This document shows, one piece after another, positions 8,912-64,000 of a stretch of DNA of 64,000 nucleotides (the first letter of the stretch is position 1; the number at the start of each line of letters is the position of its first letter). The notes beneath the pieces were generated by a model that saw nothing but the letters and a program-made list of their open reading frames with translations, made no database searches and was not told where the DNA came from. Source of the DNA: Eledone cirrhosa (Eukaryota). The stretch is from the NCBI GenBank assembly GCA_964016885.1, contig OZ024755.1, forward strand, positions 43,090,001 through 43,154,000, read 5' to 3'. Both the position numbers and the translations under genes were made by a program.

Positions 8912-8940
8912 TTAGGGTTAGGGTTAGGGTTAGGGTTAGG
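8912..8940 (+). repeat. Short interstitial telomeric tract (TTAGGG)4TTAGG
   Basis: Perfect TTAGGG hexamers at 8912, 8918, 8924 and 8930, then TTAGG at 8936. TTAGGG is the canonical telomere repeat of vertebrates and many other eukaryotes. Confidence 0.93.
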
Positions 8941-9999
8941 CTTAGGATAGCTTAGCTTAGCTTAGCTTAGGATAGCTTAGCTTAGCTTAGCTTAGGATAG
9001 CTTAGCTTAGCTTAGCTTAGGATAGCTTAGCTTAGGATAGCTTAGCTTAGGATAGCTTAGCTTAGGTTAGCTTAGCTTAGCTTAGCTTAGGATAGCTTAG
9101 GATAGCTTAGCTTAGGATAGCTTAGCTTAGCTTAGCTTAGGATAGCTTAGGATAGCTTAGGATAGCTTAGCTTAGCTTAGCTTAGGATAGCTTAGCTTAG
9201 GATAGCTTAGCTTAGCTTAGGATAGCTTAGCTTAGCTTAGCTTAGGATAGCTTAGCTTAGGATAGCTTAGCTTAGGATAGCTTAGCTTAGGATAGCTTAG
9301 GATAGCTTAGCTTAGGATAGCTTAGGATAGCTTAGCTTAGGTAGCTTAGCTTAGCTTAGCTTAGGATAGCTTAGCTTAGCTTAGGATAGCTTAGCTTAGC
9401 TTAGCTTAGGATAGCTTAGCTTAGGATAGCTTAGGATAGCTTAGCTTAGCTTAGCTTAGGATAGCTTAGCATAGCTTAGGATAGCTTAGCTTAGCTTAGG
9501 ATAGCTTAGCTTAGGATAGCTTAGCTTAGCTTAGCTTAGGATAGCTTAGCTTAGCTTAGCTTAGGATAGCTTAGCTTAGCTTAGCTTAGGATAGCTTAGC
9601 TTAGCTTAGCTTAGGATAGCTTAGCTTAGCTTAGCTTAGGATAGCTTAGCTTAGCTTAGCTTAGCTTAGCTTAGCTTAGCTTAGCTTAGCTTAGCTTAGG
9701 ATAGCTTAGCTTAGCTTAGCTTAGGATAGCTTAGCTTAGCTTAGGAGAGCTTAGCTTAGCTTAGCTTAGGATAGCTTAGCTTAGCTTAGCTTAGGATAGC
9801 TTAGCTTAGCTTAGCTTAGGATAGCTTAGCTTAGCTTAGCTTAGGATAGCTTAGCTTAGCTTAGCTTAGGATAACTTAGCTTAGCTTAGCTTAGGATAGC
9901 TTAGCTTAGCTTAGCTTAGGATAGCTTAGCTTAGCTTAGCTTAGGATAGCTTAGCTTAGCTTAGCTTAGGATAGCTTAGGATAGCTTAGCTTAGGATAG

Positions 10000-12900
10000 C
10001 TTAGGATAGCTTAGCTTAGGATAGCTTAGGATAGCTTAGCTTAGGATAGCTTAGGATAGCTTAGCTTAGCTTAGCTTAGCTTAGCTTAGCTTAGCTTAGC
10101 TTAGCTTAGGATAGCTTAGGATAGCTTAGCTTAGGATAGCTTAGCTTAGGATAGCTTAGCTTAGGATAGCTTAGCTTAGGATAGCTTAGCTTAGGATAGC
10201 TTTGCTTAGGATAGCTTAGGATAGCTTAGCTTAGGATAGCTTAAGATAGCTTAGCTTAGGATAGCTTAGCTTAGGATAGCTTTGGATAGCTTAGCTTAGC
10301 TTAGCTTAGGATAGCTTAGTTTAGCTTAGCTTAGGATAGCTTAGCTTAGCTTAGGATAGCTTAGCTTAGCTTTGCTTAGGATAGCTTAGCTTAGGATAGC
10401 TTAGCTTAGCTTAGCTTAGGATAGCTTAGCTTAGCTTAGCTTAGGATAGCTTAGCTTAGCTTAGCTTAGGATAGCTTAGCTTAGCTTAGGATAGCTTAGC
10501 TTAGCTTAGGATAGCTTAGCTTAGCTTAGGATAGCTTAGCTTAGCTTAGCTTAGGATAGCTTAGCTTAGCTTTGCTTAGGATAGCTTAGCTTAGCTTAGC
10601 TTAGGATAGCTTAGCTTAGGTTAGCTTAGGATAGCTTAGCTTAGCTTAGGATAGCTTAGCTTAGCTTAGCTTAGGATAGCTTAGATTAGCTTAGCTTATG
10701 ATAGCTTAGCTTAGCTTAGGATAGCTTAGCTTAGCTTAGCTTAGGATAGCTTAGCTTAGCTTAGCTTAGGATAGCTTAGCTTAGCTTAGCTTAGGATAGC
10801 TTAGCTTAGCTTAGCTTAGGATAGCTTAGCTTAGCTTAGCTTAGGATAACTTAGCTTAGCTTAGCTTAGCTTAGGATAGCTTAGCTTAGGATAGCTTAGC
10901 TTAGCTTAGGATAGCTTAGCTTAGCTTAGCTTAGGATAGCTTAGCTTAGCTTAGCTTAGGATAGCTTAGCTTAGCTTAGCTTAGCTTAGCTTAGGATAGC
11001 TTAGCTTAGCTTAGCTTAGCTTAGCTTAGGATAGCTTAGCTTATGTTAGCTTAGCTTAGCTTAGCTTAGGATAGCTTAGGATAGCTTAGCTTAGGATAGT
11101 TTAGCTTAGCTTAGCTTAGGATAGCTTAGCTTAGCTTAGCTTAGGATAGCTTAGCTTAGGATAGCTTAGCTTAGGATAGCTTAGGATAGCTTAGCTTAGG
11201 ATAGCTTAGCTTAGGATAGCTTAGGATAGCTTAGCTTAGGATAGCTTAGGATAGCTTAGCTTAGCTTAGCTTAGGATAGCTTAGCTTAGCTTAGCTTAGG
11301 ATAGTTTAGCTTAGCTTAGCTTAGGATAGCTTAGCTTAGCTTAGCTTAGGATAGCTTAGCTTAGCTTAGGATAGCTTAGCTTAGCTTAGCTTAGGATAGC
11401 TTAGCTTAGCTTAGCTTAGGATAGCTTAGCTTAGCTTAGCTTAGGATAGCTTAGCTTAGCTTAGCTTAGGATAGCTTAGCTTAGCTTAGCTTAGGATAGC
11501 TTAGCTTAGCTTAGGATAGCTTAGCTTAGCTTAGCTTAGGATAGCTTAGCTTAGCTTAGGATAGCTTAGCTTAGCTTAGGAGAGCTTAGCTTAGCTTAGG
11601 AGAGCTTAGCTTAGCTTAGCTTAGGATAGCTTAGCTTAGCTTAGGAGAGCTTAGCTTAGCTTAGCTTAGGATAGCTTAGCTTAGCTTAGCTTAGGATAGC
11701 TTAGCTTAGCTTAGCTTAGGATAGCTTAGCTTAGCTTAGCTTAGGATAGCTTAGCTTAGCTTAGCTTAGGATAGCTTAGGATAGCTTACCTTAGGAGAGC
11801 TTAGCTTAGGATAGCTTAGCTTAGGATAGTTTAGGATAGCTTAGCTTAGGATAGCTTAGCTTAGAATAGCTTAGCTTAGGATAGCTTAGGATAGCTTAGC
11901 TTAGGATATCTTAGCTTAGCTTAGCTTAGGATAGCTTAGCTTAGCTTAGCTTAGGATAGCTTAGGATAGCTTAGCTTAGGATAGCTTAGGATAGCTTAGC
12001 TTAGGATAGCTTAGCTTAGGATAGCTTAGGATAGCTTAGCTTAGCTTAGCTTAGGATAGCTTAGCTTAGCTTAGCTTTGGATAGCTTAGCTTAGCTTAGC
12101 TTTGAATAGCTTAGCTTAGCTTAGCTTAGGATAGCTTAGGATAGCTTAGCTTAGGATAGCTTAGGATAGTTTAGCTTAGGATAGCTTAGGATAGCTTAGC
12201 TTAGGATAGCTTAGGATAGCTTAGCTTAGGAATAGCTTAGCTTAGGAGAGCTTAGCTTAGCTTAGCTTAGGATAGCTTAGCTTGGGATAGCTTAGCTTAG
12301 GATAGCTTAGCTTAGGATAGCTTAGCTTAGGATAGCTTAGGATAGCTTAGCTTAGCTTAGCTTAGGCTAGCTTAGCTTAGCTTAGCCTAGGATAGCTTAG
12401 CTTAGCTTACGATAGCTTAGCTTAGCTTAGCTTAGGATAGCTTAGCTTAGCTTAGGATAGCTTAGCTTAGCTTTGCTTAGGATAGCTTAGCTTAGCTTAG
12501 CTTAGGATAGCTTAGCTTAGCTTAGCTTAGGATAGCTTAGCTTAGGATAGCTTAGCTTAGGATAGCTTAGCTTAGGATAGCTTAGCTTAGGATAGCTTAG
12601 GATAGCTTAGCTTAGGATAGCTTAGCTTAGCTTAGCTTAGGATAGCTTAGCTTAGGATAGCTTAGCTTAGGATAGCTTAGCTTAGCTTAGCTTAGGTTAG
12701 CTTAGCTTAGCTTAGCTTAGGATAGCTTAGCTTAGCTTAGCTTAGCTTAGCTTAGCTTAGGATAGCTTAGCTTAGCTTAACTTAGGATAGCTTAGCTTAG
12801 CTTAGCTTAGGATAGCTTAGCTTAGCTTAGCTTAGGATAGCTTAGCTTAGCTTAGCTTAGGATAGCTTAGCTTAGCTTAGCTTAGCTTAGGATAGCTTAG

Positions 12901-15900
12901 CTTAGATTAGCTTAGGATAGCTTAGCTTAGCTTAGCTTAGGATAACTTAGCTTAGCTTAGCTTAGGATAGCTTAGCTTAGCTTAGCTTAGGATAGCTTAG
13001 CTTAGCTTAGCTTAGGATAGCTTAGCTTAGCTTAGCTTAGGATAGCTTAGGATAGCTTAGCTTAGGATAGCTTAGGATAGCTTAGCTTAGGATAGCTTAG
13101 GATAGCTTAGCTTAGGATAGCTTAGGATAGCTTAGCTTAGGATAGCTTAGCTTAGGATAGCTTAGGATAGCTTAGCTTAGCTTAGCTTAGGATAGCTTAG
13201 CTTAGCTTAGCTTAGGATAGCTTAGCTTAGCTTAGCTTAGGATAGCTTAGCTTAGCTTAGCTTAGGATAGCTTAGCTTAGCTTAGCTTAGGATAGCTTAG
13301 CTTAGGATAGCTTAGCTTAGGATAGCTTAGGATAGCTTAGCTTAGGATAGCTTAGCTTAGGATAGCTTAGCTTAGGATAGCTTAGGATAGCTTAGCTTAG
13401 GATAGCTTAAGATAGCTTAGCTTAGGATAGCTTAGCTTAGCTTAGGATAGCTTAGTTTAGCTTAGCTTAGGATAGCTTAGCTTAGCTTAGGATAGCTTAG
13501 CTTAGCTTAGGATAGCTTAGCTTAGCTATGCTTAGGATAGCTTAGCTTAGCTTAGCTTAGGATAGCTTAGCTTAGCTTAGCTTAGGATAGCTTAGCTTAG
13601 CTTAGCTTAGGATAGCTTAGCTTAGCTTAGCTTAGGGTAGCTTAGCTTAGCTTAGGATAGCTTAGCTTAGCTTAGGATAGCTTAGCTTAGCTTAGGATAG
13701 CTTAGCTTAGCTTAGCTTAGGATAGCTTAGCTTAGCTTTGCTTAGGATAGCTTAGCTTAGCTTAGCTTAGGATAGCTTAGCTTAGGTTAGCTTAGGATAG
13801 CTTAGCTTAGCTTAGCTTAGGATAGCTTAGCTTAGCTTAGCTTAGGATAGCTTAGCTTAGCTTAGCTTAGGATAGCTTAGATTAGCTTAGCTTAGGATAG
13901 CTTAGCTTAGCTTAGGATAGCTTAGCTTAGCTTAGCTTAGGATAGCTTAGCTTAGCTTAGCTTAGGATAGCTTAGCTTAGCTTAGCTTAGGATAGCTTAG
14001 CTTAGCTTAGCTTAGGATAGCTTAGCTTAGCTTAGCTTAGGATAGCTTAGCTTAGCTTAGCTTAGGATAGCTTAGCTTAGGATAGCTTAGGATAGCTTAG
14101 CTTAGGATAGCTTAGGATAGCTTAGCTTAGGATAGCTTAGGATAGCTTAGCTTAGGATAGCTTAGGATAGCTTAGCTTAGCTTAGCTTAGCTTAGCTTAG
14201 CTTAGCTTAGCTTAGGATAGCTTAGCTTAGGATAGCTTAGGATAGCTTAGCTTAGGATAGCTTAGCTTAGGATAGCTTAGCTTAGGATAGCTTAGCTTAG
14301 GATAGCTTTGCTTAGGATAGCTTAGGATAGCTTAGCTTAGGATAGCTTAAGATAGCTTAGCTTAGGATAGCTTAGCTTAGGATAGCTTTGGATAGCTTAG
14401 CTTAGCTTAGCTTAGGATAGCTTAGTTTAGCTTAGCTTAGGATAGCTTAGCTTAGCTTAGGATAGCTTAGCTTAGCTTTGCTTAGGATAGCTTAGCTTAG
14501 GATAGCTTAGCTTAGCTTAGCTTAGGATAGCTTAGCTTAGCTTAGCTTAGGATAGCTTAGCTTAGCTTAGCTTAGGATAGCTTAGCTTAGCTTAGGATAG
14601 CTTAGCTTAGCTTAGGATAGCTTAGCTTAGCTTAGCTTAGGATAGCTTAGCTTAGCTTTGCTTAGGATAGCTTAGCTTAGCTTAGCTTAGGATAGCTTAG
14701 CTTAGGTTAGCTTAGGATAGCTTAGCTTAGCTTAGGATAGCTTAGCTTAGCTTAGCTTAGGATAGCTTAGATTAGCTTAGCTTATGATAGCTTAGCTTAG
14801 CTTAGGATAGCTTAGCTTAGCTTAGCTTAGGATAGCTTAGCTTAGCTTAGCTTAGGATAGCTTAGCTTAGCTTAGCTTAGGATAGCTTAGCTTAGCTTAG
14901 CTTAGGATAGCTTAGCTTAGCTTAGCTTAGGATAACTTAGCTTAGCTTAGCTTAGCTTAGGATAGCTTAGCTTAGGATAGCTTAGCTTAGCTTAGGATAG
15001 CTTAGCTTAGCTTAGCTTAGGATAGCTTAGCTTAGGATAGCTTAGGATAGCTTAGCTTAGCTTAGCTTAGGATAGCTTAGCTTAGCTTAGCTTAGGATAG
15101 CTTAGCTTAGCTTAGCTTAGCTTAGCTTAGGATAGCTTAGCTTAGCTTAGCTTAGCTTAGCTTAGGATAGCTTAGCTTAGCTTAGCTTAGAATAGCTTAG
15201 CTTAGCTTAGCTTAGGATAGCTTAGCTTAGCTTGGCTTAGGATAGCTTAGCTTAGCTTAGCTTAGGATAGCTTAGCTTAGGATAGCTTAGCTTAGGATAG
15301 CTTAGCTTATGTTAGCTTAGCTTAGCTTAGGATAGCTTAGCTTATGTTAGCTTAGCTTAGCTTAGCTTAGGATAGCTTAGGATAGCTTAGCTTAGGATAG
15401 TTTAGCTTAGCTTAGCTTAGGATAGCTTAGCTTAGCTTAGCTTAGGATAGCTTAGCTTAGGATAGCTTAGCTTAGGATAGCTTAGGATAGCTTAGCTTAG
15501 GATAGCTTAGCTTAGGATAGCTTAGCTTAGGATAGCTTAGCTTAGGATAGCTTAGGATAGCTTAGCTTAGCTTAGCTTAGGATAGCTTAGCTTAGCTTAG
15601 CTTAGGATAGCTTAGCTTAGCTTAGCTTAGGATAGCTTAGCTTAGCTTAGCTTAGGATAGCTTAGCTTAGCTTAGCTTAGGATAGCTTAGCTTAGCTTAG
15701 CTTAGGATAGCTTAGCTTAGCTTAGCTTAGGATAGCTTAGCTTAGCTTAGCTTAGGATAGCTTAGCTTAGCTTAGCTTAGGATAGCTTAGCTTAGCTTAG
15801 GATAGCTTAGCTTAGCTTAGCTTAGGATAGCTTAGCTTAGCTTAGGATAGCTTAGCTTAGCTTAGGAGAGCTTAGCTTAGCTTAGGAGAGCTTAGCTTAG

Positions 15901-18350
15901 CTTAGCTTAGGATAGCTTAGCTTAGCTTAGCTTAGGATAGCTTAGCTTAGCTTAGCTTAGGATAGCTTAGCTTAGCTTAGCTTAGGATAGCTTAGCTTAG
16001 CTTAGCTTAGGATAGCTTAGCTTAGCTTAGCTTAGGATAGCTTAGGATAGCTTACCTTAGGAGAGCTTAGCTTAGGATAGCTTAGCTTAGGATAGTTTAG
16101 GATAGCTTAGCTTAGGATAGCTTAGCTTAGAATAGCTTAGCTTAGGATAGCTTAGGATAGCTTAGCTTAGGATATCTTAGCTTAGCTTAGCTTAGGATAG
16201 CTTAGCTTAGCTTAGCTTAGGATAGCTTAGGATAGCTTAGCTTAGGATAGCTTAGGATAGCTTAGCTTAGGATAGCTTAGCTTAGGATAGCTTAGGATAG
16301 CTTAGCTTAGCTTAGCTTAGGATAGCTTAGCTTAGCTTAGCTTTGGATAGCTTAGCTTAGCTTAGCTTTGAATAGCTTAGCTTAGCTTAGCTTAGGATAG
16401 CTTAGGATAGCTTAGCTTAGGATAGCTTAGGATAGTTTAGCTTAGGATAGCTTAGGATAGCTTAGCTTAGGATAGCTTAGGATAGCTTAGCTTAGGAATA
16501 GCTTAGCTTAGGAGAGCTTAGCTTAGCTTAGCTTAGGATAGCTTAGCTTGGGATAGCTTAGCTTAGGATAGCTTAGCTTAGGATAGCTTAGCTTAGGATA
16601 GCTTAGGATAGCTTAGCTTAGCTTAGCTTAGGCTAGCTTAGCTTAGCTTAGCCTAGGATAGCTTAGCTTAGCTTACGATAGCTTAGCTTAGCTTAGCTTA
16701 GGATAGCTTAGCTTAGCTTAGGATAGCTTAGCTTAGCTTTGCTTAGGATAGCTTAGCTTAGCTTAGCTTAGGATAGCTTAGCTTAGCTTAGCTTAGGATA
16801 GCTTAGCTTAGGATAGCTTAGCTTAGGATAGCTTAGCTTAGGATAGCTTAGCTTAGGATAGCTTAGGATAGCTTAGCTTAGGATAGCTTAGCTTAGCTTA
16901 GCTTAGGATAGCTTAGCTTAGGATAGCTTAGCTTAGGATAGCTTAGCTTAGCTTAGCTTAGGTTAGCTTAGCTTAGCTTAGCTTAGGATAGCTTAGCTTA
17001 GCTTAGCTTAGGATAGCTTAGCTTAGCTTAGCTTAGGATAGCTTAGCTTAGCTTAACTTAGGATAGCTTAGCTTAGCTTAGCTTAGGATAGCTTAGCTTA
17101 GCTTAGCTTAGGATAGCTTAGCTTAGCTTAGCTTAGGATAGCTTAGCTTAGCTTAGCTTAGCTTAGGATAGCTTAGCTTAGATTAGCTTAGGATAGCTTA
17201 GCTTAGCTTAGCTTAGGATAACTTAGCTTAGCTTAGCTTAGGATAGCTTAGCTTAGCTTAGCTTAGGATAGCTTAGCTTAGCTTAGCTTAGGATAGCTTA
17301 GCTTAGCTTAGCTTAGGATAGCTTAGGATAGCTTAGCTTAGGATAGCTTAGGATAGCTTAGCTTAGGATAGCTTAGGATAGCTTAGCTTAGGATAGCTTA
17401 GGATAGCTTAGCTTAGGATAGCTTAGCTTAGGATAGCTTAGGATAGCTTAGCTTAGCTTAGCTTAGGATAGCTTAGCTTAGCTTAGCTTAGGATAGCTTA
17501 GCTTAGCTTAGCTTAGGATAGCTTAGCTTAGCTTAGCTTAGGATAGCTTAGCTTAGCTTAGCTTAGGATAGCTTAGCTTAGGATAGCTTAGCTTAGGATA
17601 GCTTAGGATAGCTTAGCTTAGGATAGCTTAGCTTAGGATAGCTTAGCTTAGGATAGCTTAGGATAGCTTAGCTTAGGATAGCTTAAGATAGCTTAGCTTA
17701 GGATAGCTTAGCTTAGGATAGCTTAGGATAGCTTAGCTTAGCTTAGGATAGCTTAGTTTAGCTTAGCTTAGGATAGCTTAGCTTAGCTTAGGATAGCTTA
17801 GCTTAGCTTAGGATAGCTTAGCTTAGCTTTGCTTAGGATAGCTTAGCTTAGCTTAGCTTAGGATAGCTTAGCTTAGCTTAGCTTAGGATAGCTTAGCTTA
17901 GCTTAGCTTAGGATAGCTTAGCTTAGCTTAGCTTAGGGTAGCTTAGCTTAGCTTAGGATAGCTTAGCTTAGCTTAGGATAGCTTAGCTTAGCTTAGGATA
18001 GCTTAGCTTAGCTTAGCTTAGGATAGCTTAGCTTAGCTTTGCTTAGGATAGCTTAGCTTAGCTTAGCTTAGGATAGCTTAGCTTAGGTTAGCTTAGGATA
18101 GCTTAGCTTAGCTTAGCTTAGGATAGCTTAGCTTAGCTTAGCTTAGGATAGCTTAGCTTAGCTTAGCTTAGGATAGCTTAGATTAGCTTAGCTTAGGATA
18201 GCTTAGCTTAGCTTAGGATAGCTTAGCTTAGCTTAGCTTAGGATAGCTTAGCTTAGCTTAGCTTAGGATAGCTTAGCTTAGCTTAGCTTAGGATAGCTTA
18301 GCTTAGCTTAGCTTAGGATAGCTTAGCTTAGCTTAGCTCAGGATAGCTTA
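10000..18350 (+). repeat. ~4.1-4.3-kb higher-order duplication in the pentamer array (2 copies)
   Basis: CTTACC 11785/16051, GATATC 11905/16171 and the +1 insertion (G)AATAG 12231/16497 all have offset 4266. TTTG 10201/14307 has offset 4106, and CTTAGGGTAG 13631/17932 has offset 4301. Confidence 0.85.
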
Positions 18351-21249
18351 GCTTAGCTTAGCTTAGGATAGCTTAGCTTAGCTTAGCTTAGGATAACTTA
18401 GCTTAGCTTAGCTTAGCTTAGGATAGCTTAGCTTAGCTTAGCTTAGGATAGCTTAGCTTAGCTTAGCTTAGGATAGCTTAGCTTAGCTTAGCTTAGCTTA
18501 GGATAGCTTAGCTTAGCTTAGCTTAGGATAGCTTAGCTTAGCTTAGCTTAGCTTAGGATAGCTTAGCTTAGCTTAGCTTAGGATAGCTTAGCTTAGCTTA
18601 GCTTAGCTTAGCTTAGGATAGCTTAGCTTAGCTTAGCTTAGGATAGCTTAGCTTAGCTTAGCTTAGGATAGCTTAGCTTAGATTGGCTTAGGATAGCTTA
18701 GCTTAGCTTAGCTTAGCTTAGCTTAGGATAGCTTAGGATAGCTTAGCTTAGGATAGCTTAGGATAGCTTATCTTAGGATAGCTTAGCTTAGGATAGCTTA
18801 GCATAGCTTAGCTTAGGATAGCTTAGGATAGCTTAGCTTAGGATAGCTTAGCTTAGGATAGCTTAGGATAGCTTAGCTTAGCTTAGCTTTGGATAGCTTA
18901 GCTTAGCTTAGCTTAGGATAGCTTAGCTTAGCTTAGCTTAGGATAGCTTAGGATAGCTTAGCTTAGGATAGCTTAGGATAGCTTAGCTTAGGTAGCTTAG
19001 GATAGCTTAGCTTAGGATAGCTTAGGATAGCTTAGCTTAGGATAGCTTAGGATAGCTTAGCTTAGGATAGCTTAGCTTAGGATAGCTTAGCTTAGCTTAG
19101 CATAGGATAGCTTAGCTTAGCTTAGCTTAGGATAGCTTAGCTTAGCTTAGCTTAGGATAGCTTAGCTTAGGATAGCTTAGCTTAGGATAGCTTAGGATAG
19201 CTTAGCTTAGGATAGCTTAGGATAGCTTAGCTTAGGATAGCTTAGGATAGCTTAGCTTAGGATAGCTTAGCTTAGGATAGCTTAGGATAGCTTAGCTTAG
19301 GATAGCTTAGCTTAGGATAGCTTAGGATAGCTTAGCTTAGCTTAGGATAGCTTAGTTTAGCTTAGCTTAGGATAGCTTAGCTTAGCTTAGGATAGCTTAG
19401 CTTAGCTTAGGATAGCTTAGCTTAGCTTTGCTTAGGATAGCTTAGCTTAGCTTAGCTTAGGATAGCTTAGCTTAGCTTAGCTTAGGATAGCTTAGCTTAG
19501 CTTAGGATAGCTTAGCTTAGCTTAGGATAGCTTAGCTTAGCTTAGGATAGCTTAGCTTAGCTTAGCTTAGGATAGCTTAGCTTAGCTTTGCTTAGGATAG
19601 CTTAGCTTAGGTTAGCTTAGGATAGCTTAGCTTAGGATAGCTTAGCTTAGCTTAGCTTAGGATAGCTTAGCTTAGCTTAGCTTAGGATAGCTTAGATTAG
19701 CTTAGCTTAGGATAGCTTAACTTAGCTTAGCTTAGGATAGCTTAGCTTAGCTTAGCTTAGGATAGCTTAGCTTAGCTTAGCTTAGGATAACTTAGCTTAG
19801 CTTAGCTTAGCTTAGGATAGCTTAGCTTAGGATAGCTTAGCTTAGCTTAGCTTAGGATAGCTTAGCTTAGCTTAGCTTAGGATAGCTTAGCTTAGCTTAG
19901 CTTAGGATAGCTTAGCTTAGCTTAGCTTAGCTTAGGATAGCTTAGCTTAGCTTAGCTTAGGATAGCTTAGCTTAGCTTAGCTTAGCTTAGCTTAGCTTAG
20001 GATAGCTTAGCTTAGCTTAGCTTAGGATAGCTTAGCTTAGCTTAGCTTAGGATAGCTTAGCTTAGCTTGGCTTAGGATAGCTTAGCTTAGCTTAGCTTAG
20101 GATAGCTTAGGATAGCTTAGCTTAGGATAGCTTAGGATAGCTTATCTTAGGATAGCTTAGCTTAGGATAGCTTAGGATAGCTTAGCTTAGGATAGCTTAG
20201 GATAGCTTAGCTTAGGATAGCTTAGCTTAGGATAGCTTAGGATAGCTTAGCTTAGCTTAGCTTTGGATAGCTTAGCTTAGCTTAGCTTTGGATAGCTTAG
20301 CTTAGCTTAGCTTTGGATAGCTTAGCTTAGCTTAGCTTTGGAAAGCTTAGCTTAGCTTAGCTTAGGATAGCTTAGCTTAGCTTAGCTTAGGATAGCTTAG
20401 GATAGCTTAGCTTAGGATAGCTTAGGATAGCTTAGCTTAGGATAGCTTAGCTTAGGATAGCTTAGCTTAGCTTAGCTTAGGATAGCTTAGCTTGGGATAG
20501 CTTAGGATAGCTTAGCTTAGGATAGCTTAGCTTAGGATAGCTTAGCTTAGGATAGCTTAGGATAGCTTAGCTTAGCTTAGCTTAGGATAGCTTAGCTTAG
20601 CTTAGCTTAGGATAGCTTAGCTTAGCTTAGGATAGCTTAGCTTAGCTTGGCTTAGGATAGCTTAGCTTAGCTTAGCTTAGGATAGCTTAGGATAGCTTAG
20701 CTTAGGATAGCTTAGGATAGCTTATCTTAGGATAGCTTAGCTTAGGATAGCTTAGCTTAGGATAGCTTAGCTTAGGATAGCTTAGGATAGCTTAGCTTAG
20801 GATAGCTTAGCTTAGGATAGCTTAGGATAGCTTAGCTTAGCTTAGCTTTGGATAGCTTAGCTTAGCTTAGCTTAGGATAGCTTAGGATAGCTTAGGATAG
20901 CTTAGCTTAGGATAGCTTAGGATAGCTTAGCTTAGGATAGCTTAGGATAGCTTAGCTTAGGATAGCATAGCTTAGGATAGCTTAGCTTAGCTTAGCTTAG
21001 GATAGCTTAGCTTGGGATAGCTTAGGATAGCTTAGCTTAGGATAGCTTAGCTTAGGATAGCTTAGCTTAGGATAGCTTAGGATAGCTTAGGATAGCTTAG
21101 CTTAGGATAGCTTAGCTTAGCTTAGCTTAGGATAGCTTAGCTTAGCTTAGGATAGCTTAGCTTAGCTTAGCTTAGGATAGCTTAGCTTAGCTTAGCTTAG
21201 GTAGCTTAGCTTAGCTTAGCTTAGGATAGCTTAGCTTAGCTTAGCTTAG

Positions 21250-29100: not shown

Positions 29101-29329
29101 TTAGGATAGCTTAGGATAGCTTAGCTTAGGATAGCTTAGCTTAGGATAGCTTAGCTTAGGATAGCTTAGGATAGCTTAGCTTAGCTTAGGATAGCTTAGC
29201 TTAGCTTAGCTTAGGATAGCTTAGGATAGCTTAGCTTGGGATAGCTTAGCTTAGAATAGCTTAGCTTAGCTTAGCTTAGGATAGCTTAGCTTGGGATAGC
29301 TTAGGATAGCTTAGGATAGCTTAGCTTAG

Positions 29330-51900: not shown

Positions 51901-54900
51901 GAGAGCTTAGCTTAGGATAGCTTAGCTTAGGATAGCTTAGCTTAGGATAGCTTAGGATAGCTTAGCTTAGCATAGCTTAGGATAGCTTAGCTTAGCTTAG
52001 CTTAGGATAGGTTAGCTTAGCTTAGCTTAGGATAGCTTAGCTTAGCTTAGCTTAGCATAGCTTAGGATAGCTTAGCTTAGGATAGCTTAGCTTAGCTTAG
52101 CTTAGGATAGCTTAGCTTAGCTTAGGATAGCTTAGCTTAGCTTAGCTTAGGATAGCTTAGCTTAGGATAGCTTAGGATAGCTTAGCTTAGCTTAGCTTAG
52201 GATAGCTTAGCTTAGGATAGCTTAGGATAGCTTAGCTTAGCTTAGCTTAGGATAGCTTAGCTTAGCTTAGCTTAGCTTTGCTTAGGATAGCTTAGTTTAG
52301 CTTAGCTTAGGATAGCTTAGCTTAGCTTAGCTTAGGATAGCTTAGCTTAGCTTAGGATAGCTTAGCTTAGCTTAGCTTAGGATAGCTTACCTTAGGAGAG
52401 CTTAGCTTAGGATAGCTTAGCTTAGGATAGCTTAGCTTAGGATAGCTTAGGATAGCTTAGCTTAGCATAGCTTAGGATAGCTTAGCTTAGCTTAGCTTAG
52501 GATAGGTTAGCTTAGCTTAGCTTAGGATAGCTTAGCTTAGCTTAGCTTAGCATAGCTTAGGATAGCTTAGCTTAGGATAGCTTAGCTTAGCTTAGCTTAG
52601 GATAGCTTAGCTTAGCTTAGGATAGCTTAGCTTAGCTTAGCTTAGGATAGCTTAGCTTAGGATAGCTTAGGATAGCTTAGCTTAGCTTAGCTTAGGATAG
52701 CTTAGCTTAGGATAGCTTAGGATAGCTTAGCTTAGCTTAGCTTAGGATAGCTTAGCTTAGCTTAGCTTAGCTTTGCTTAGGATAGCTTAGTTTAGCTTAG
52801 CTTAGGATAGCTTAGCTTAGCTTAGCTTAGGATAGCTTAGCTTAGCTTAGCTTAGGATAGCTTAGCTTAGCTTAGCTTAGGATAGCTTAGCTTAGGATAG
52901 CTTAGCTTAGCTTAGCTTAGGATAGCTTAGCTTAGCTTAGCTTAGGATAGCTTAGGATAGATTAGCTTAGGATAGCTTAGCTTAGGATAGCTTAGCTTAG
53001 GATAGCTTAGCTTAGCTTAGCTTAGCTTAGCTTAGGATAGCTTAGGATAGCTTAGCTTCGGATAGCTTAGGATAGCTTAGCTTAGGATAGATTAGGATAG
53101 CTTAGCTTAGGATAGCTTAGGATAGCTTAGCTTAGGATAGCTTAGCTTAGGATAGCTTAGCTTAGGATAGCTTAGCTTAGCTTAGCTTAGGATAGCTTAG
53201 CTTAGCTTAGGATAGCTTAGCTTAGCTTAGCTTAGGATAGCTTACCTTAGGAGAGCTTAGCTTAGGATAGCTTAGCTTAGGATAGCTTAGCTTAGGATAG
53301 CTTAGGATAGCTTAGCTTAGCATAGCTTAGGATAGCTTAGCTTAGCTTAGCTTAGGATAGGTTAGCTTAGCTTAGCTTAGGATAGCTTAGCTTAGCTTAG
53401 CTTAGCATAGCTTAGGATAGCTTAGCTTAGGATAGCTTAGCTTAGCTTAGCTTAGGATAGCTTAGCTTAGGATAGCTTAGCTTAGCATAGCTTAGGATAG
53501 CTTAGCTTAGGATAGCTTAGCTTAGCTTAGCTTAGGATAGCTTAGCTTAGGATAGCTTAGCTTAGGATAGCTTAGGATAGCTTAGCTTAGGATAGCTTAG
53601 CTTAGGATAGCTTAGCTTAGGATAGCTTAGGATAGCTTAGCTTAGCTTAGCTTAGGATAGCTTAGGATAGATTAGCTTAGGATAGCTTAGCTTAGGATAG
53701 CTTAGCTTAGGATAGCTTAGCTTAGCTTAGCTTAGCTTAGCTTAGGATAGCTTAGGATAGCTTAGCTTCGGATAGCTTAGGATAGCTTAGCTTAGGATAG
53801 ATTAGGATAGCTTAGCTTAGGATAGCTTAGGATAGCTTAGCTTAGGATAGCTTAGCTTAGGATAGCTTAGCTTAGGATAGCTTAGCTTAGCTTAGCTTAG
53901 GATAGCTTAGCTTAGCTTAGGATAGCTTAGCTTAGCTTAGCTTAGGATAGCTTACCTTAGGAGAGCTTAGCTTAGGATAGCTTAGCTTAGGATAGCTTAG
54001 CTTAGGATAGCTTAGGATAGCTTAGCTTAGCATAGCTTAGGATAGCTTAGCTTAGCTTAGCTTAGGATAGGTTAGCTTAGCTTAGCTTAGGATAGCTTAG
54101 CTTAGCTTAGCTTAGCATAGCTTAGGATAGCTTAGCTTAGGATAGCTTAGCTTAGCTTAGCTTAGGATAGCTTAGCTTAGCTTAGGATAGCTTAGCTTAG
54201 CTTAGCTTAGGATAGCTTAGCTTAGGATAGCTTAGGATAGCTTAGCTTAGCTTAGCTTAGGATAGCTTAGCTTAGGATAGCTTAGGATAGCTTAGCTTAG
54301 CTTAGCTTAGGATAGCTTAGCTTAGCTTAGCTTAGCTTTGCTTAGGATAGCTTAGTTTAGCTTAGCTTAGGATAGCTTAGCTTAGCTTAGCTTAGGATAG
54401 CTTAGCTTAGCTTAGCTTAGGATAGCTTAGCTTAGCTTAGCTTAGGATAGCTTAGCTTAGGATAGCTTAGCTTAGCTTAGCTTAGGATAGCTTAGCTTAG
54501 CTTAGCTTAGGATAGCTTAGGATAGATTAGCTTAGGATAGCTTAGCTTAGGATAGCTTAGCTTAGGATAGCTTAGCTTAGCTTAGCTTAGCTTAGCTTAG
54601 GATAGCTTAGGATAGCTTAGCTTCGGATAGCTTAGGATAGCTTAGCTTAGGATAGATTAGGATAGCTTAGCTTAGGATAGCTTAGGATAGCTTAGCTTAG
54701 GATAGCTTAGCTTAGGATAGCTTAGCCTAGGATAGCTTAGCTTAGCTTAGCTTAGCTTAGCTTAGGATAGCTTAGGATAGCTTAGCTTCGGATAGCTTAG
54801 GATAGCTTAGCTTAGGATAGATTAGGATAGCTTAGCTTAGGATAGCTTAGGATAGCTTAGCTTAGGATAGCTTAGCTTAGGATAGCTTAGCTTAGGATAG

Positions 54901-57900
54901 CTTAGGATAGCTTAGCTTAGCTTAGCTTAGGATAGCTTAGGATAGATTAGCTTAGGATAGCTTAGCTTAGGATAGCTTAGCTTAGGATAGCTTAGCTTAG
55001 CTTAGCTTAGCTTAGCTTAGGATAGCTTAGGATAGCTTAGCTTCGGATAGCTTAGGATAGCTTAGCTTAGGATAGATTAGGATAGCTTAGCTTAGGATAG
55101 CTTAGGATAGCTTAGCTTAGGATAGCTTAGCTTAGGATAGCTTAGCTTAGGATAGCTTAGCTTAGCTTAGCTTAGGATAGCTTAGCTTAGCTTAGGATAG
55201 CTTAGCTTAGCTTAGCTTAGGATAGCTTACCTTAGGAGAGCTTAGCTTAGGATAGCTTAGCTTAGGATAGCTTAGCTTAGGATAGCTTAGGATAGCTTAG
55301 CTTAGCATAGCTTAGGATAGCTTAGCTTAGCTTAGCTTAGGATAGGTTAGCTTAGCTTAGCTTAGGATAGCTTAGCTTAGCTTAGCTTAGCATAGCTTAG
55401 GATAGCTTAGCTTAGGATAGCTTAGCTTAGCTTAGCTTAGGATAGCTTAGCTTAGCTTAGGATAGCTTAGCTTAGCTTAGCTTAGGATAGCTTAGCTTAG
55501 GATAGCTTAGGATAGCTTAGCTTAGCTTAGCTTAGGATAGCTTAGCTTAGGATAGCTTAGGATAGCTTAGCTTAGCTTAGCTTAGGATAGCTTAGCTTAG
55601 CTTAGCTTAGCTTTGCTTAGGATAGCTTAGTTTAGCTTAGCTTAGGATAGCTTAGCTTAGCTTAGCTTAGGATAGCTTAGCTTAGCTTAGCTTAGGATAG
55701 CTTAGCTTAGCTTAGCTTAGGATAGCTTAGCTTAGGATAGCTTAGCTTAGCTTAGCTTAGGATAGCTTAGCTTAGCTTAGCTTAGGATAGCTTAGGATAG
55801 ATTAGCTTAGGATAGCTTAGCTTAGGATAGCTTAGCTTAGGATAGCTTAGCTTAGCTTAGCTTAGCTTAGCTTAGGATAGCTTAGGATAGCTTAGCTTCG
55901 GATAGCTTAGGATAGCTTAGCTTAGGATAGATTAGGATAGCTTAGCTTAGGATAGCTTAGGATAGCTTAGCTTAGGATAGCTTAGCTTAGGATAGCTTAG
56001 CTTAGGATAGCTTAGCTTAGCTTAGCTTAGGATAGCTTAGCTTAGCTTAGGATAGCTTAGCTTAGCTTAGCTTAGGATAGCTTACCTTAGGAGAGCTTAG
56101 CTTAGGATAGCTTAGCTTAGGATAGCTTAGCTTAGGATAGCTTAGGATAGCTTAGCTTAGCATAGCTTAGGATAGCTTAGCTTAGCTTAGCTTAGGATAG
56201 GTTAGCTTAGCTTAGCTTAGGATAGCTTAGCTTAGCTTAGCTTAGCATAGCTTAGGATAGCTTAGCTTAGGATAGCTTAGCTTAGCTTAGCTTAGGATAG
56301 CTTAGCTTAGCTTAGGATAGCTTAGCTTAGCTTAGCTTAGGATAGCTTAGCTTAGGATAGCTTAGGATAGCTTAGCTTAGCTTAGCTTAGGATAGCTTAG
56401 CTTAGGATAGCTTAGGATAGCTTAGCTTAGCTTAGCTTAGGATAGCTTAGCTTAGCTTAGCTTAGCTTTGCTTAGGATAGCTTAGTTTAGCTTAGCTTAG
56501 GATAGCTTAGCTTAGCTTAGCTTAGGATAGCTTAGCTTAGCTTAGCTTAGGATAGCTTAGGATAGATTAGCTTAGGATAGCTTAGCTTAGGATAGCTTAG
56601 CCTAGGATAGCTTAGCTTAGCTTAGCTTAGCTTAGCTTAGGATAGCTTAGGATAGCTTAGCTTCGGATAGCTTAGGATAGCTTAGCTTAGGATAGATTAG
56701 GATAGCTTAGCTTAGGATAGCTTAGGATAGCTTAGCTTAGGATAGCTTAGCTTAGGATAGCTTAGCTTAGGATAGCTTAGGATAGCTTAGCTTAGCTTAG
56801 CTTAGGATAGCTTAGGATAGATTAGCTTAGGATAGCTTAGCTTAGGATAGCTTAGCTTAGGATAGCTTAGCTTAGCTTAGCTTAGCTTAGCTTAGGATAG
56901 CTTAGGATAGCTTAGCTTCGGATAGCTTAGGATAGCTTAGCTTAGGATAGATTAGGATAGCTTAGCTTAGGATAGCTTAGGATAGCTTAGCTTAGGATAG
57001 CTTAGCTTAGGATAGCTTAGCTTAGGATAGCTTAGCTTAGCTTAGCTTAGGATAGCTTAGCTTAGCTTAGGATAGCTTAGCTTAGCTTAGCTTAGGATAG
57101 CTTACCTTAGGAGAGCTTAGCTTAGGATAGCTTAGCTTAGGATAGCTTAGCTTAGGATAGCTTAGGATAGCTTAGCTTAGCATAGCTTAGGATAGCTTAG
57201 CTTAGCTTAGGATAGGTTAGCTTAGCTTAGCTTAGGATAGCTTAGCTTAGCTTAGCTTAGCATAGCTTAGGATAGCTTAGCTTAGCTTAGCTTAGGATAG
57301 CTTAGCTTAGCTTAGGATAGCTTAGCTTAGCTTAGCTTAGGATAGCTTAGCTTAGGATAGCTTAGGATAGCTTAGCTTAGCTTAGCTTAGGATAGCTTAG
57401 CTTAGGATAGCTTAGGATAGCTTAGCTTAGCTTAGCTTAGGATAGCTTAGCTTAGCTTAGCTTAGCTTTGCTTAGGATAGCTTAGTTTAGCTTAGCTTAG
57501 GATAGCTTAGCTTAGCTTAGCTTAGGATAGCTTAGCTTAGCTTAGCTTAGGATAGCTTAGCTTAGCTTAGCTTAGGATAGCTTAGCTTAGGATAGCTTAG
57601 GATAGCTTAGCTTAGCTTAGCTTAGGATAGCTTAGCTTAGCTTAGCTTAGCTTTGCTTAGGATAGCTTAGTTTAGCTTAGCTTAGGATAGCTTAGCTTAG
57701 CTTAGCTTAGGATAGCTTACCTTAGGAGAGCTTAGCTTAGGATAGCTTAGCTTAGGATAGCTTAGCTTAGGATAGCTTAGGATAGCTTAGCTTAGCATAG
57801 CTTAGGATAGCTTAGCTTAGCTTAGCTTAGGATAGGTTAGCTTAGCTTAGCTTAGGATAGCTTAGCTTAGCTTAGCTTAGCATAGCTTAGGATAGCTTAG

Positions 57901-60900
57901 CTTAGGATAGCTTAGCTTAGCTTAGCTTAGGATAGCTTAGCTTAGCTTAGGATAGCTTAGCTTAGCTTAGCTTAGGATAGCTTAGCTTAGGATAGCTTAG
58001 GATAGCTTAGCTTAGCTTAGCTTAGGATAGCTTAGCTTAGGATAGCTTAGGATAGCTTAGCTTAGCTTAGCTTAGGATAGCTTAGCTTAGCTTAGCTTAG
58101 CTTTGCTTAGGATAGCTTAGTTTAGCTTAGCTTAGGATAGCTTAGCTTAGCTTAGCTTAGGATAGCTTAGCTTAGCTTAGCTTAGGATAGCTTAGCTTAG
58201 CTTAGCTTAGGATAGCTTAGCTTAGGATAGCTTAGCTTAGCTTAGCTTAGGATAGCTTAGCTTAGCTTAGCTTAGGATAGCTTAGCTTAGCTTAGGATAG
58301 CTTAGCTTAGCTTAGCTTAGGATAGCTTAGCTTAGGATAGCTTAGGATAGCTTAGCTTAGCTTAGCTTAGGATAGCTTAGCTTAGGATAGCTTAGGATAG
58401 CTTAGCTTAGCTTAGCTTAGGATAGCTTAGCTTAGCTTAGCTTAGCTTTGCTTAGGATAGCTTAGTTTAGCTTAGCTTAGGATAGCTTAGCTTAGCTTAG
58501 CTTAGGATAGCTTAGCTTAGCTTAGCTTAGGATAGCTTAGCTTAGCTTAGCTTAGGATAGCTTAGCTTAGGATAGCTTAGCTTAGCTTAGCTTAGGATAG
58601 CTTAGCTTAGCTTAGCTTAGGATAGCTTAGCTTAGCTTAGCTTAGGATAGCTTAGCTTAGCTTAGCTTAGCTTAGGATAGCTTAGCTTAGGATAGCTTAG
58701 GATAGCTTAGCTTCGGATAGCTTAGGATAGCTTAGCTTAGGATAGATTAGGATAGCTTAGCTTAGGATAGCTTAGGATAGCTTAGCTTAGGATAGCTTAG
58801 CTTAGGATAGCTTAGCTTAGGATAGCTTAGGATAGCTTAGCTTAGCTTAGCTTAGGATAGCTTAGGATAGATTAGCTTAGGATAGCTTAGCTTAGGATAG
58901 CTTAGCTTAGGATAGCTTAGCTTAGCTTAGCTTAGCTTAGCTTAGGATAGCTTAGGATAGCTTAGCTTCGGATAGCTTAGGATAGCTTAGCTTAGGATAG
59001 ATTAGGATAGCTTAGCTTAGGATAGCTTAGGATAGCTTAGCTTAGGATAGCTTAGCTTAGGATAGCTTAGCTTAGGATAGCTTAGCTTAGCTTAGCTTAG
59101 GATAGCTTAGCTTAGCTTAGGATAGCTTAGCTTAGCTTAGCTTAGGATAGCTTACCTTAGGAGAGCTTAGCTTAGGATAGCTTAGCTTAGGATAGCTTAG
59201 CTTAGGATAGCTTAGGATAGCTTAGCTTAGCATAGCTTAGGATAGCTTAGCTTAGCTTAGCTTAGGATAGGTTAGCTTAGCTTAGCTTAGGATAGCTTAG
59301 CTTAGCTTAGCTTAGCATAGCTTAGGATAGCTTAGCTTAGGATAGCTTAGCTTAGCTTAGCTTAGGATAGCTTAGCTTAGCTTAGGATAGCTTAGCTTAG
59401 CTTAGCTTAGGATAGCTTAGCTTAGGATAGCTTAGGATAGCTTAGCTTAGCTTAGCTTAGGATAGCTTAGCTTAGGATAGCTTAGGATAGCTTAGCTTAG
59501 CTTAGCTTAGGATAGCTTAGCTTAGCTTAGCTTAGCTTTGCTTAGGATAGCTTAGTTTAGCTTAGCTTAGGATAGCTTAGCTTAGCTTAGCTTAGGATAG
59601 CTTAGCTTAGCTTAGCTTAGGATAGCTTAGGATAGATTAGCTTAGGATAGCTTAGCTTAGGATAGCTTAGCCTAGGATAGCTTAGCTTAGCTTAGCTTAG
59701 CTTAGCTTAGGATAGCTTAGGATAGCTTAGCTTCGGATAGCTTAGGATAGCTTAGCTTAGGATAGATTAGGATAGCTTAGCTTAGGATAGCTTAGGATAG
59801 CTTAGCTTAGGATAGCTTAGCTTAGGATAGCTTAGCTTAGGATAGCTTAGGATAGCTTAGCTTAGCTTAGCTTAGGATAGCTTAGGATAGATTAGCTTAG
59901 GATAGCTTAGCTTAGGATAGCTTAGCTTAGGATAGCTTAGCTTAGCTTAGCTTAGCTTAGCTTAGGATAGCTTAGGATAGCTTAGCTTCGGATAGCTTAG
60001 GATAGCTTAGCTTAGGATAGATTAGGATAGCTTAGCTTAGGATAGCTTAGGATAGCTTAGCTTAGGATAGCTTAGCTTAGGATAGCTTAGCTTAGGATAG
60101 CTTAGCTTAGCTTAGCTTAGGATAGCTTAGCTTAGCTTAGGATAGCTTAGCTTAGCTTAGCTTAGGATAGCTTACCTTAGGAGAGCTTAGCTTAGGATAG
60201 CTTAGCTTAGGATAGCTTAGCTTAGGATAGCTTAGGATAGCTTAGCTTAGCATAGCTTAGGATAGCTTAGCTTAGCTTAGCTTAGGATAGGTTAGCTTAG
60301 CTTAGCTTAGGATAGCTTAGCTTAGCTTAGCTTAGCATAGCTTAGGATAGCTTAGCTTAGGATAGCTTAGCTTAGCTTAGCTTAGGATAGCTTAGCTTAG
60401 CTTAGGATAGCTTAGCTTAGCTTAGCTTAGGATAGCTTAGCTTAGGATAGCTTAGGATAGCTTAGCTTAGCTTAGCTTAGGATAGCTTAGCTTAGGATAG
60501 CTTAGGATAGCTTAGCTTAGCTTAGCTTAGGATAGCTTAGCTTAGCTTAGCTTAGCTTTGCTTAGGATAGCTTAGTTTAGCTTAGCTTAGGATAGCTTAG
60601 CTTAGCTTAGCTTAGGATAGCTTAGCTTAGCTTAGCTTAGGATAGCTTAGCTTAGCTTAGCTTAGGATAGCTTAGCTTAGGATAGCTTAGCTTAGCTTAG
60701 CTTAGGATAGCTTAGCTTAGCTTAGCTTAGGATAGCTTAGCTTAGCTTAGCTTAGGATAGCTTAGCTTAGCTTAGCTTAGCTTAGGATAGCTTAGCTTAG
60801 GATAGCTTAGGATAGCTTAGCTTAGCTTAGCTTAGGATAGCTTAGGATAGCTTAGGATAGCTTAGCTTAGGATAGCTTAGCTTAGGATAGCTTAGCTTAG

Positions 60901-61500
60901 GATAGCTTAGGATAGCTTAGCTTAGGATAGCTTAGGATAGCTTAGCTTAGGATAGCTTAGGATAGCTTAGCTTAGGATAGCTTAGCTTAGGATAGCTTAG
61001 GATAGCTTAGCTTAACTTAGCTTAGCTTAGGATAGCTTAGCTTAGCTTAGCTTAGGATAGCTTAGCTTAGCTTAGCTTAGGATAGCTTAGGATAGATTAG
61101 CTTAGGATAGCTTAGCTTAGGATAGCTTAGCCTAGGATAGCTTAGCTTAGCTTAGCTTAGCTTAGCTTAGGATAGCTTAGGATAGCTTAGCTTCGGATAG
61201 CTTAGGATAGCTTAGCTTAGGATAGATTAGGATAGCTTAGCTTAGGATAGCTTAGGATAGCTTAGCTTAGGATAGCTTAGCTTAGGATAGCTTAGCTTAG
61301 GATAGCTTAGGATAGCTTAGCTTAGCTTAGCTTAGGATAGCTTAGGATAGATTAGCTTAGGATAGCTTAGCTTAGGATAGCTTAGCTTAGGATAGCTTAG
61401 CTTAGCTTAGCTTAGCTTAGCTTAGGATAGCTTAGGATAGCTTAGCTTCGGATAGCTTAGGATAGCTTAGGATAGCTTAGCTTAGGATAGCTTAGCTTAG
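42950..61500 (+). repeat. Homogeneous ~1020-bp higher-order repeat domain with truncated and shuffled copies and an internal 255-bp duplication
   Basis: The marker order CCTAG, CTTCG, ATTAG, ATTAG, CTTCG, ATTAG, CTTAC-CTTAG-GAGAG, CATAG, GTTAG, CATAG, CTTTG, TTTAG recurs. Offsets of 1020: CTTCG 43896/44916; CTTAC 49021/50041, 56091/57111, 59151/60171. Offset of 255: CTTCG 43896/44151. Confidence 0.9.
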
Positions 61501-64000
61501 GATAGCTTAGGATAGCTTAGCTTAGGATAGCTTAGCTTAGGATAGCTTAGCTTAGGATAGCTTAGCTTAGCTTAGCTTAGGATAGCTTAGCTTAGCTTAG
61601 GATAGCTTAGCTTAGCTTAGCTTAGGATAGCTTAGCTTAGCTTAGCTTAGGATAGCTTAGCTTAGCTTAGCTTAGGATAGCTTAGCTTAGGATAGCTTAG
61701 GATAGCTTAGCTTAGGATAGCTTAGGATAGCTTAGCTTAGGATAGCTTAGCTTAGCTTAGCTTAGGATAGCTTAGCTTAGCTTAGGATAGCTTAGCTTAG
61801 CTTAGCTTAGGATAGCTTAGCTTAGGATAGCTTAGGAAAGCTTAGCTTAGCTTAGCTTAGGATAGCTTAGCTTAGCTTAGCTTAGGATAGCTTAGCTTAG
61901 CTTAGCTTAGGATAGCTTAGCTTAGCTTAGGATAGCTTAGCTTAGCTTAGGATAGCTTAGCTTAGCTTAGCTTAGGATAGCTTAGCTTAGCTTAGCTTAG
62001 GATAGCTTAGCTTAGCTTAGCTTAGGATAGCTTAGCTTAGGATAGCTTAGGATAGCTTAGCTTAGGATAGCTTAGGATAGCTTAGCTTAGGATAGCTTAG
62101 CTTAGCTTAGCTTAGGATAGCTTAGCTTAGCTTAGGATAGCTTAGCTTAGCTTAGCTTAGGATAGCTTAGCTTAGGATAGCTTAGGAAAGCTTAGCTTAG
62201 CTTAGCTTAGGATAGCTTAGCTTAGCTTAGCTTAGGATAGCTTAGCTTAGCTTAGTTTAGGATAGCTTAGCTTAGCTTAGCTTAGCTTAGGATAGCTTTG
62301 CTTAGCTTAGCTTAGGATAAATTAGCTTAGGATAGCTTAGTTTAGGATAGCTTAGCTTAGCTTAGCTTAGGATAGCTTAGCTTAGCTTAGCTTAGGATAG
62401 CTTAGCTTAGCTTAGCTTAGGATAGCTTAGCTTAGCTTAGCTTAGGATAGCTTAGCTAAGCTTAGCTTAGCTTAGGATAGCTTAGCTTAGCTTAGCTTAG
62501 CTTAGCTTAGCTTGGCTTAGGATAGCTTAGCTTAGCGTAGCTTAGGATAGCTTAGCTTAGCTTAGCTTAGCTTAGCTTAGGATAGCTTAGCTTAGGATAG
62601 CTTAGGATAGCTTAGCTTAGGATAGCTTAGCTTAGGATAGCTTAGGATAGATTAGCTTAGCTTAGCTTAGGATAGCTTAGCTTAGCTTAGCTTAGGATAG
62701 CTTAGCTTAGCTTAGGATAGCTTAGCTTAGCTTAGCTTAGGATAGATTAGCTTAGCTTAGCTTAGGATAGCTTAGCTTAGCTTAGCTTAGGATAGCTTAG
62801 CTTAGCTTAGGATAGCTTAGCTTAGCTTAGGATAGCTTAGGATAGCTTAGCTTAGCTTAGGATAGCTTAGGATAGCTTAGCTTAGGATAGCTTAGGATAG
62901 CTTAGCTTAGGATAGCTTAGCTTAGGATAGCTTAGCTTAGCTTAGGATAGCTTAGCTTAGGATAGCTTAGGATAGCTTAGCTTAGGATAGCTTAGCTTAG
63001 GATAGCTTAGGATAGATTAGCTTAGCTTAGCTTAGGATAGCTTAGCTTAGCTTAGCTTAGGATAGCTTAGCTTAGCTTAGGATAGCTTAGCTTAGCTTAG
63101 CTTAGGATAGCTTAGCTTAGCTTAGCTTAGGATAGCTTAGCTTAGCTTAGCTTAGGATAGCTTAGCTTAGCTTAGGATAGCTTAGCTTAGCTTAGGATAG
63201 CTTAGGATAGCTTAGCTTAGCTTAGGATAGCTTAGGATAGCTTAGGATAGCTTAGCTTAGGATAGCTTAGGATAGCTTAGCTTAGCTTAGGATAGCTTAG
63301 CTTAGCTTAGCTTAGGATAGCTTAGCTTAGCTTAGCTTAGGATAGCTTAGCTTAGGTTAGCTTAGCTTAGCTTAGCTTAGGATAGCTTAGCTTAGCTTAG
63401 CTTAGCTTAGGATAGGTTAGCTTAGGATAGTTTAGGATTGCTTAGCTTAGCTTAGCTTAGGATAGCTTAGCTTAGCTTAGCTTAGGATAGCTTAGCTTAG
63501 CTTAGGATAGCTTAGCTTAGCTTAGCTTAGGATAGCTTAGCTTAGCTTAGCTTAGGATAGCTTAGCTTAGCTTAGCTTAGGATAGCTTAGCTTAGCTTAG
63601 GATAGCTTAGCTTAGCTTAGCTAAGGATAGCTTAGCTTAGCTTAGGATAGCTTAGCTTAGCTTAGCTTAGGATAGCTTAGCTTAGCTTAGCTTAGGTAGC
63701 TTAGCTTAGCTTAGCTTAGGATAGCTTAGCTTAGCTTAGCTTAGGATAGCTTAGCTTAGCTTAGCTTAGCTTAGCTTAGCTTAGCTTAGCTTAGCTTAGG
63801 ATAGCTTAGCTTAGCTTAGGATAGCTTACCTTAGGAGAGCTTAGCTTAGGATAGCTTAGCTTAGGATAGCTTAGGATAGCTTAGCTTAGGATAGCTTAGC
63901 TTAGGATAGCTTAGCTTAGGATAGCTTAGGATAGCTTAGCTTAGCTTAGCTTAGGATAGCTTAGGATAGCTTAGGATAGCTTAGCTTAGGATAGCTTAGC

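Follow-up and report, generated by a model that had tools for sequence, protein, structure and literature searches.

A perfect telomeric stub between two tandem repeat arrays in Eledone cirrhosa, probably marking a healed and re-joined chromosome break

Short interstitial telomeric sequences (ITSs), described in human and horse, are defined in PMC7215372 as having at least four units, each with less than one mismatch; the same source gives 1–6 in-register bases for 31 of 40 informative loci (78%) in horse. At the seven fusion sites reported for Indian muntjac, one-directional TTAGGG blocks directly adjoin satellite, the main blocks being 168–837 bp long before 12–106 kb of satellite (PMC2760882). 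Great-ape subterminal caps are reported to coexist with telomeres (PMC12154684, PMC3643582), and telomere-like satellites are already a known class according to PMC6410037 and PMC9693754. Here, we analyzed a 64,000-nucleotide stretch of Eledone cirrhosa DNA (contig OZ024755.1, positions 43,090,001–43,154,000, forward strand), hereafter the window, in which a 29-bp telomeric stub lies between a 44-bp minisatellite and a long satellite of CTTAG and GATAG units. As best read, the locus is a base-level record of a healed, re-joined chromosome break beside a satellite of which the literature searched yielded no description. On this reading, the junction is of a known kind and involves no new principle.

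The window (1–64000) consists of repeats throughout, with neither unique sequence nor N, and no Rfam match was found in it. The parts that matter for the junction are as follows.

1..8911, + strand: 44-bp G/T-rich minisatellite, non-coding, 204 units; continues past the left window edge.
8909..8911, + strand: GGG closing the broken last minisatellite unit, which ends after TTATGGG; three bases in register with the telomere repeat.
8912..8940, + strand: telomere stub, TTAGGG x4 plus TTAGG, 29 bp, zero mismatches; its polarity is that of a chromosome end on the right-hand side.
8941..64000, + strand: pentamer satellite of CTTAG and GATAG with 25-bp superunits, 55,060 bp; continues past the right window edge.

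The left join is sharp. The last minisatellite unit breaks after TTATGGG, where other units continue with CTGTG, and TTAGGG begins immediately (positions 8912, 8918, 8924 and 8930), with no zone of degenerate telomere variants at the join. TTAGGG was not found in the 204 units of the 8.9-kb minisatellite (which hold 155 intact copies of TTATGGG), and the five other TTAGGG hexamers in the window are each a single point variant within the satellite; thus, the run is not background. With four perfect units plus TTAGG, the stub has the unit number and match of a short ITS, and it also has in-register bases (GGG, 3 nt), although this is weak because 12 of the 44 positions of the minisatellite unit offer three or more. 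It is also non-terminal in the assembly, with at least 8.9 kb of other sequence on one side and 55 kb on the opposite side. Unlike short ITSs, the stub is flanked by two different tandem arrays, so that it connects two sequences and does not lie within a single locus; a simple empty allele may therefore not exist. The GGG at 8909–8911 would be compatible with telomerase priming, but such a site is not rare. Overall, the left join looks like one at which a telomere was added to a broken end, evidence that is weak when taken alone, and the perfect stub suggests that a source of TTAGGG exists or once existed.

At the right join, the first-pass annotation had listed TTAGGG x4, TTAGGC, TTAGG and then ATAGC/TTAGC units, and this order is indeed present from 8912–8942 onward (TTAGGC at 8936, TTAGG at 8942). 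It had also read this order as a graded transition with the TTAG core kept in register. However, the change occurs in a single step: the core spacing is 6 bp up to 8942 and 5 bp from there, so that the register holds only to that point. TTAGGC is one hybrid hexamer, composed of telomeric TTAGG and the C of the first CTTAG, and the TTAGG at 8942 belongs to TTAGG-ATAGC, which is ordinary satellite content (2,562 copies in the array). TTAGGC-TTAGG was found nowhere in the array. No gradient of TTAGG-like units runs from the stub along the array, where the TTAGG-like variant unit is flat (0.35–0.63 per 100 units in five zones, chi-square p = 0.69).

Four exact copies of the first 120 bp past the join are present in the array, and ordinary satellite units precede each of the ten longest matches to the post-join sequence. 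The variant load is also even, with 5.2 variants per 100 units in the first 10 kb of the array vs. 4.4–6.2 elsewhere. From these recurrences, the even load and the flat TTAGG-like unit, the array looks older than the join and independent of it. The two sides have 1 nt in common at the join, which rises to 2 nt if the satellite partner had the variant CTTGG, seen at 19 of 2,605 such positions, and to 7 nt only with a TTAGGC unit already present in the telomere. If TTAG alone had mediated annealing, the product would be TTAGC or TTAGG-ATAGC directly, not TTAGGC-TTAGG. An earlier proposal that an eroded end invaded a CTTAG array through TTAG microhomology is thus half retained: a stub joined to a pre-existing array fits, whereas TTAG-mediated annealing does not fit an overlap of 1, 2 or 7 nt.

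The reading we favor, with a probability of roughly 0.7, is that telomerase healed a broken minisatellite end by adding TTAGGG and that the resulting short stub was then joined to a pre-existing satellite block. At the left join it is supported by the sharp boundary, the three in-register bases, the lack of degenerate variants and a stub that falls within the short-ITS definition; at the right join, by the one-step change, the even variant load, the lack of a TTAGG-like gradient and the recurrence of the post-join sequence after ordinary units. The muntjac fusion sites (n = 7) have the same order of parts. The mid-unit break of the minisatellite after GGG is read directly from the sequence, as are both joins, the perfect stub and the array structure. 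Telomerase would then have primed on GGG and added TTAGGG, either as a few units during repair or as a full telomere that later eroded to 29 bp. The stub and the satellite would have been brought together by end joining with 1–2 bases in common, or up to 7 if the variant unit pre-existed. The satellite itself, in which the products are seen directly, would evolve through unequal exchange between neighboring units, duplication of blocks and, now and then, inversion at AGCT palindromes. We infer the telomerase source, the end-joining route and the order of these events.

Among described systems, the window shares with the muntjac sites a TTAGGG block of one orientation that abuts a large satellite block. 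It differs in that muntjac satellite I has a unit of ~1 kb and is centromeric (PMC2760882), whereas the satellite in the window has a 5/25-bp unit. Tumor neotelomere fusions and telomere-centromere joins, as reported in PMC11293586, are similar in showing a short telomere tract with 0–3 bases in common, including at centromeric joins, but those events are somatic and their tracts are hundreds of bp long. Great-ape subterminal caps resemble the window in having a short-unit satellite with higher-order blocks and exchange beside telomeric DNA; however, the array in the window has no segmental-duplication spacers in 55 kb, its unit is unrelated and the window shows no terminus. We file the junction as short-ITS-like or fusion-like and make no choice between the two. 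For the placement of the satellite there are three candidates: a subterminal cap that leaves a normal telomere farther out, a pericentromeric block acquired when chromosomes fused head to tail, and a neighbor within interstitial heterochromatin.

Several points weigh against the proposed history. The join, as read from the assembly, is provisional, and so is its chromosomal position. The stub, at 29 bp, is far shorter than the main muntjac blocks, and the in-register GGG is weak evidence by itself, given how many unit positions would provide as much. Healing need not have involved telomerase either, since PMC11293586 attributes most tumor neotelomeres to end joining or telomere capture. Two observations hint at kinship between the satellite and telomeric DNA. 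First, the joint chance that both satellite units lie one substitution from GTTAG, a rotation of TTAGG, is ~2% (32/204 x 12/90), a post hoc figure. Second, at one of the 119 metagenome loci listed in the search described below (L090, 281–426), a TTAGGG tract reaching the contig end has (CTTAG)7 at its base, on the same strand as in the window and with the opposite order of parts; this CTTAG run may be a variant of the proximal telomere or may have seeded the addition of a telomere. It should also be noted that the argument from shelterin sites given below carries weight only for an organism whose proteins are vertebrate-like.

In a search of sequencing runs with positions 7000–11000, part of this stretch was present in 20 of 24 entries and half of it in none. 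The best shares, 0.35–0.39, came from three runs of one sample, which is possibly the source and hence not independent. A run from a second organism had a share of 0.21, the remaining shares were small and no RNA run was listed.

Of the other explanations, an assembly or library chimera of the two repeat arrays is unlikely. Long repeats on both flanks and a clean join without decay at either edge are what it would leave, and assemblers can create exact 1–2 kb duplications. However, the window has no N gap, random ligation would require a telomere cut no more than 29 bp from its base, and an overlap of 29 bp is too short for a long-read assembler to join on.

We also regard as quite unlikely that the TTAGGG run was made locally from TTATGGG, by loss of a T and slippage during an illegitimate satellite-satellite join with no part for telomerase. 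The break does lie exactly after TTATGGG, one base away from TTAGGG. Yet the last TTATGGG is still intact, none of the 204 minisatellite units has made the change, and a deletion followed by four slippage steps would have had to yield the canonical telomere repeat by chance.

The remaining alternatives concern the pentamer satellite itself, within which two features were distinguished.

29330..30161, - strand: inverted block of the same pentamer satellite, 832 bp, with AGCT-centered palindromes at both breakpoints.
43701..61400, + strand: young homogenized domain with a ~1.02-kb higher-order repeat of variable length; borders approximate.

The array is built of 10,846 forward units, of which 69.3% are CTTAG and 25.4% GATAG, the remainder being mostly single-base variants (~5 per 100); only seven units depart from pentamer length. 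Of the 2,246 runs of CTTAG between GATAG units, 505 have one unit, 740 two, 213 three, 716 four and 21 five, with peaks at one, two and four. Runs that reach a fourth unit end there in 91% of cases, and successive lengths are correlated (lag-1 correlation 0.30). This distribution rejects memoryless telomerase re-alignment as their source (chi-square 1,766). Exact duplications (100% identity), the longest of them 2,008 bp, account for 67% of the array.

Within the young domain, unique 100-mers make up 3–7% (13–69% elsewhere), there are 10 variant types (15–24 in four other zones), and duplications of at least 300 bp cover 97–100%. Its marker variants are spaced at 255+765 and 1,020 bp. Beyond 61.4 kb the array is heterogeneous again, with 51% unique 100-mers. 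The youngest layer is therefore internal, with older sequence on both sides. Such layering is seen in active centromeric satellites. The combination of a young higher-order domain at 43701–61400 and older flanks makes this region a candidate for CENP-A mapping.

A telomerase-made tract would have a single polarity and lack higher-order copying, whereas the array contains an 832-bp inversion, a 1-kb higher-order repeat and runs that are not memoryless. These features support an origin of the array's present form in copying and exchange, not in direct telomerase synthesis, in agreement with the first-pass annotation, which had taken the kb-scale duplications, present here, as favoring recombination. 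The more than 55 kb of repeat that it noted is present as well. Its statement that the repeat runs on the same strand holds for nearly the whole array, the exception being the inverted block, which it did not mention. Duplications, higher-order repeats and inversions are features common to any satellite.

The palindromes at the breakpoints of the inverted block are 16 bp and 10 bp long. Repeats of 149 and 339 bp lie within the block, which also carries, three times, a private variant that is absent from the forward array. The longest exact match between the block and that array is 158 bp, less than that of all 17 control blocks (168–832 bp), and on this basis it may stem from outside the window. 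At one metagenome locus (L099, 1–90), a CTTAG run flips directly to its reverse complement, a palindromic switch like that at the left breakpoint of the inversion.

AGCT palindromes number 7,718 in 8941–64000, and CpG occurs 47 times. When written as (TAGCT)n-TAGGA, it resembles immunoglobulin switch regions in layout, which we take to be probably a coincidence. Identification as such a region was rejected, as the array exceeds 55 kb and has higher-order repeats, and the window has no genes.

Could this array be the working end of the chromosome, maintained by recombination in the manner of break-induced replication or alternative lengthening of telomeres (ALT), with the stub as an abandoned telomerase telomere? 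The G-richer strand is on the same side in stub and array (GC skew ~+0.26), the array is still running at the window end, it carries exact kb-scale duplications, and chironomid midges are reported to maintain telomeres by satellite recombination (PMC9693754). However, the sites listed for TRF1 and POT1 in PMC3241663, YTAGGGTTR and TTAGGGTTAG, are both absent from the 55-kb array, as are TTAGGTTAGG and G-quadruplex patterns, even allowing two-G runs. A 200-nt piece folded no better than its shuffles on either strand (z 1.95 and 0.04), so that special hairpin stability was rejected and there is no special fold-back cap. Moreover, the array contains the inversion, its youngest layer is internal, and no feature within the window marks a chromosome end.

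Chironomid satellite telomeres (PMC9693754) and the TALT units of C. elegans (PMC4595603) resemble the window in having recombination-amplified tandem DNA beyond a telomere-like tract. TALT units are described as unique DNA with telomere repeats flanking every copy, whereas no recurring telomere tract was found in the 55-kb array, in which both of the above TRF1 and POT1 motifs have a count of zero. As for turnover of the Chironomus type, duplications are seen in the array, but also in the proximal minisatellite, and the youngest layer lies inside the array. Telomere units of chironomids are hundreds of bp long. Since the minisatellite has the same kind of duplications, and since they are a property of every satellite, the kb-scale duplications do not point to ALT. 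The proposals that the array is a functional telomere and that it forms a distal chromosome end thus find no sign in the window; the array is probably not the telomere, and a satellite end with an abandoned stub is distinctly unlikely. Conversely, the lack of TRF1 and POT1 sites, the inversion and the internal young higher-order domain favor the healed break joined to a satellite. Were the array nevertheless to prove the physical end in an organism with ancestral TTAGGG, it would add a rare natural example of satellite-capped ends from outside Diptera and would allow tests of how ends are protected when shelterin sites are lacking.

Whether the satellite descends from telomeric DNA is a separate question. 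Two substitutions separate CTTAG from GATAG, and GTTAG lies one substitution from either; the other intermediate, CATAG, is equally common in the array (61 vs. 57). Counting against a telomeric origin, TTAGGG has a 4-mer in common with as many as 18 of 102 classes of pentamer. A 30-nt pattern of the satellite had no match in the metagenome, viral and prokaryote collections. A search of metagenomes with (CTTAG)4 returned at least 119 unrelated stretches, in which CTTAG is mixed with TTTAG, ATTAG or GTTAG units; together with the 4-mer count, these short CTTAG runs weaken the case for a telomeric origin. Among the 119 stretches listed, none contained TTAGGATAGC and two contained two consecutive TTAGGG. 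In favor of a telomeric origin, GTTAG was mixed with CTTAG in 7 of the 45 longest runs among the matches listed. We regard telomeric ancestry of the satellite as possible but rather doubtful on these comparisons. In Arabidopsis, telomeric motifs are reported to arise inside centromeric satellite (bioRxiv 10.64898/2026.05.10.723265). In short internal runs at seven metagenome loci (L070, L043, L031, L028, L071, L055 and L023), GTTAG (TTAGG) and CTTAG alternate or adjoin, which shows that the two units interconvert in unrelated genomes.

A further version, in which a satellite derived from a TTAGG-type repeat overgrew the old TTAGGG ends and, in a TTAGGG lineage, has become a recombination-maintained chromosome cap lacking TRF- or POT1-type sites, appears very improbable. 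The weakest of the alternatives is a changed telomerase template whose alternative alignments would yield the CTTAG/GATAG mix directly: both units could in principle be made from a template that reads CTTAG-GATAG-CTTAG, and older TTAGGG remnants within newer telomeres are reported in budding yeast (PMC6410037), but the non-memoryless run lengths, the kb duplications with shared point variants, the 1-kb higher-order repeat and the inversion make it scarcely credible.

Motif searches of the literature with all ten pentamer rotations and longer strings, which covered mostly open papers, found no description of the CTTAG/GATAG satellite among the matches listed, although repeat catalogues may list it. 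TTAGC x2 was found by motif match in a 1991 article on centromere probes (PMC2289018), and we treat this as an open lead only. The locus could be used in tracing the karyotype history of the species, and the array would provide a ready marker, as DdeI and AluI would cut it every few bases.

The minisatellite on the other side of the stub consists of 204 units of 44 bp (184 units), 38 bp (14), 42 bp (5) or 43 bp (1), with 1.2–1.5 differences per unit from the consensus along its whole length. Each of the six frames is interrupted by stop codons and no open stretch exceeds 87 codons, which ruled out a coding role. A degenerate telomere was likewise ruled out, as an equal-scoring alignment was obtained in 27% of 2,000 shuffles. 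Exact duplications cover 77% of the minisatellite. The region 3196–7318 holds an exact 2,031-bp duplication whose copies start at 3196 and 5288 (offset 2,092), and thus the minisatellite also has kb-scale higher-order structure.

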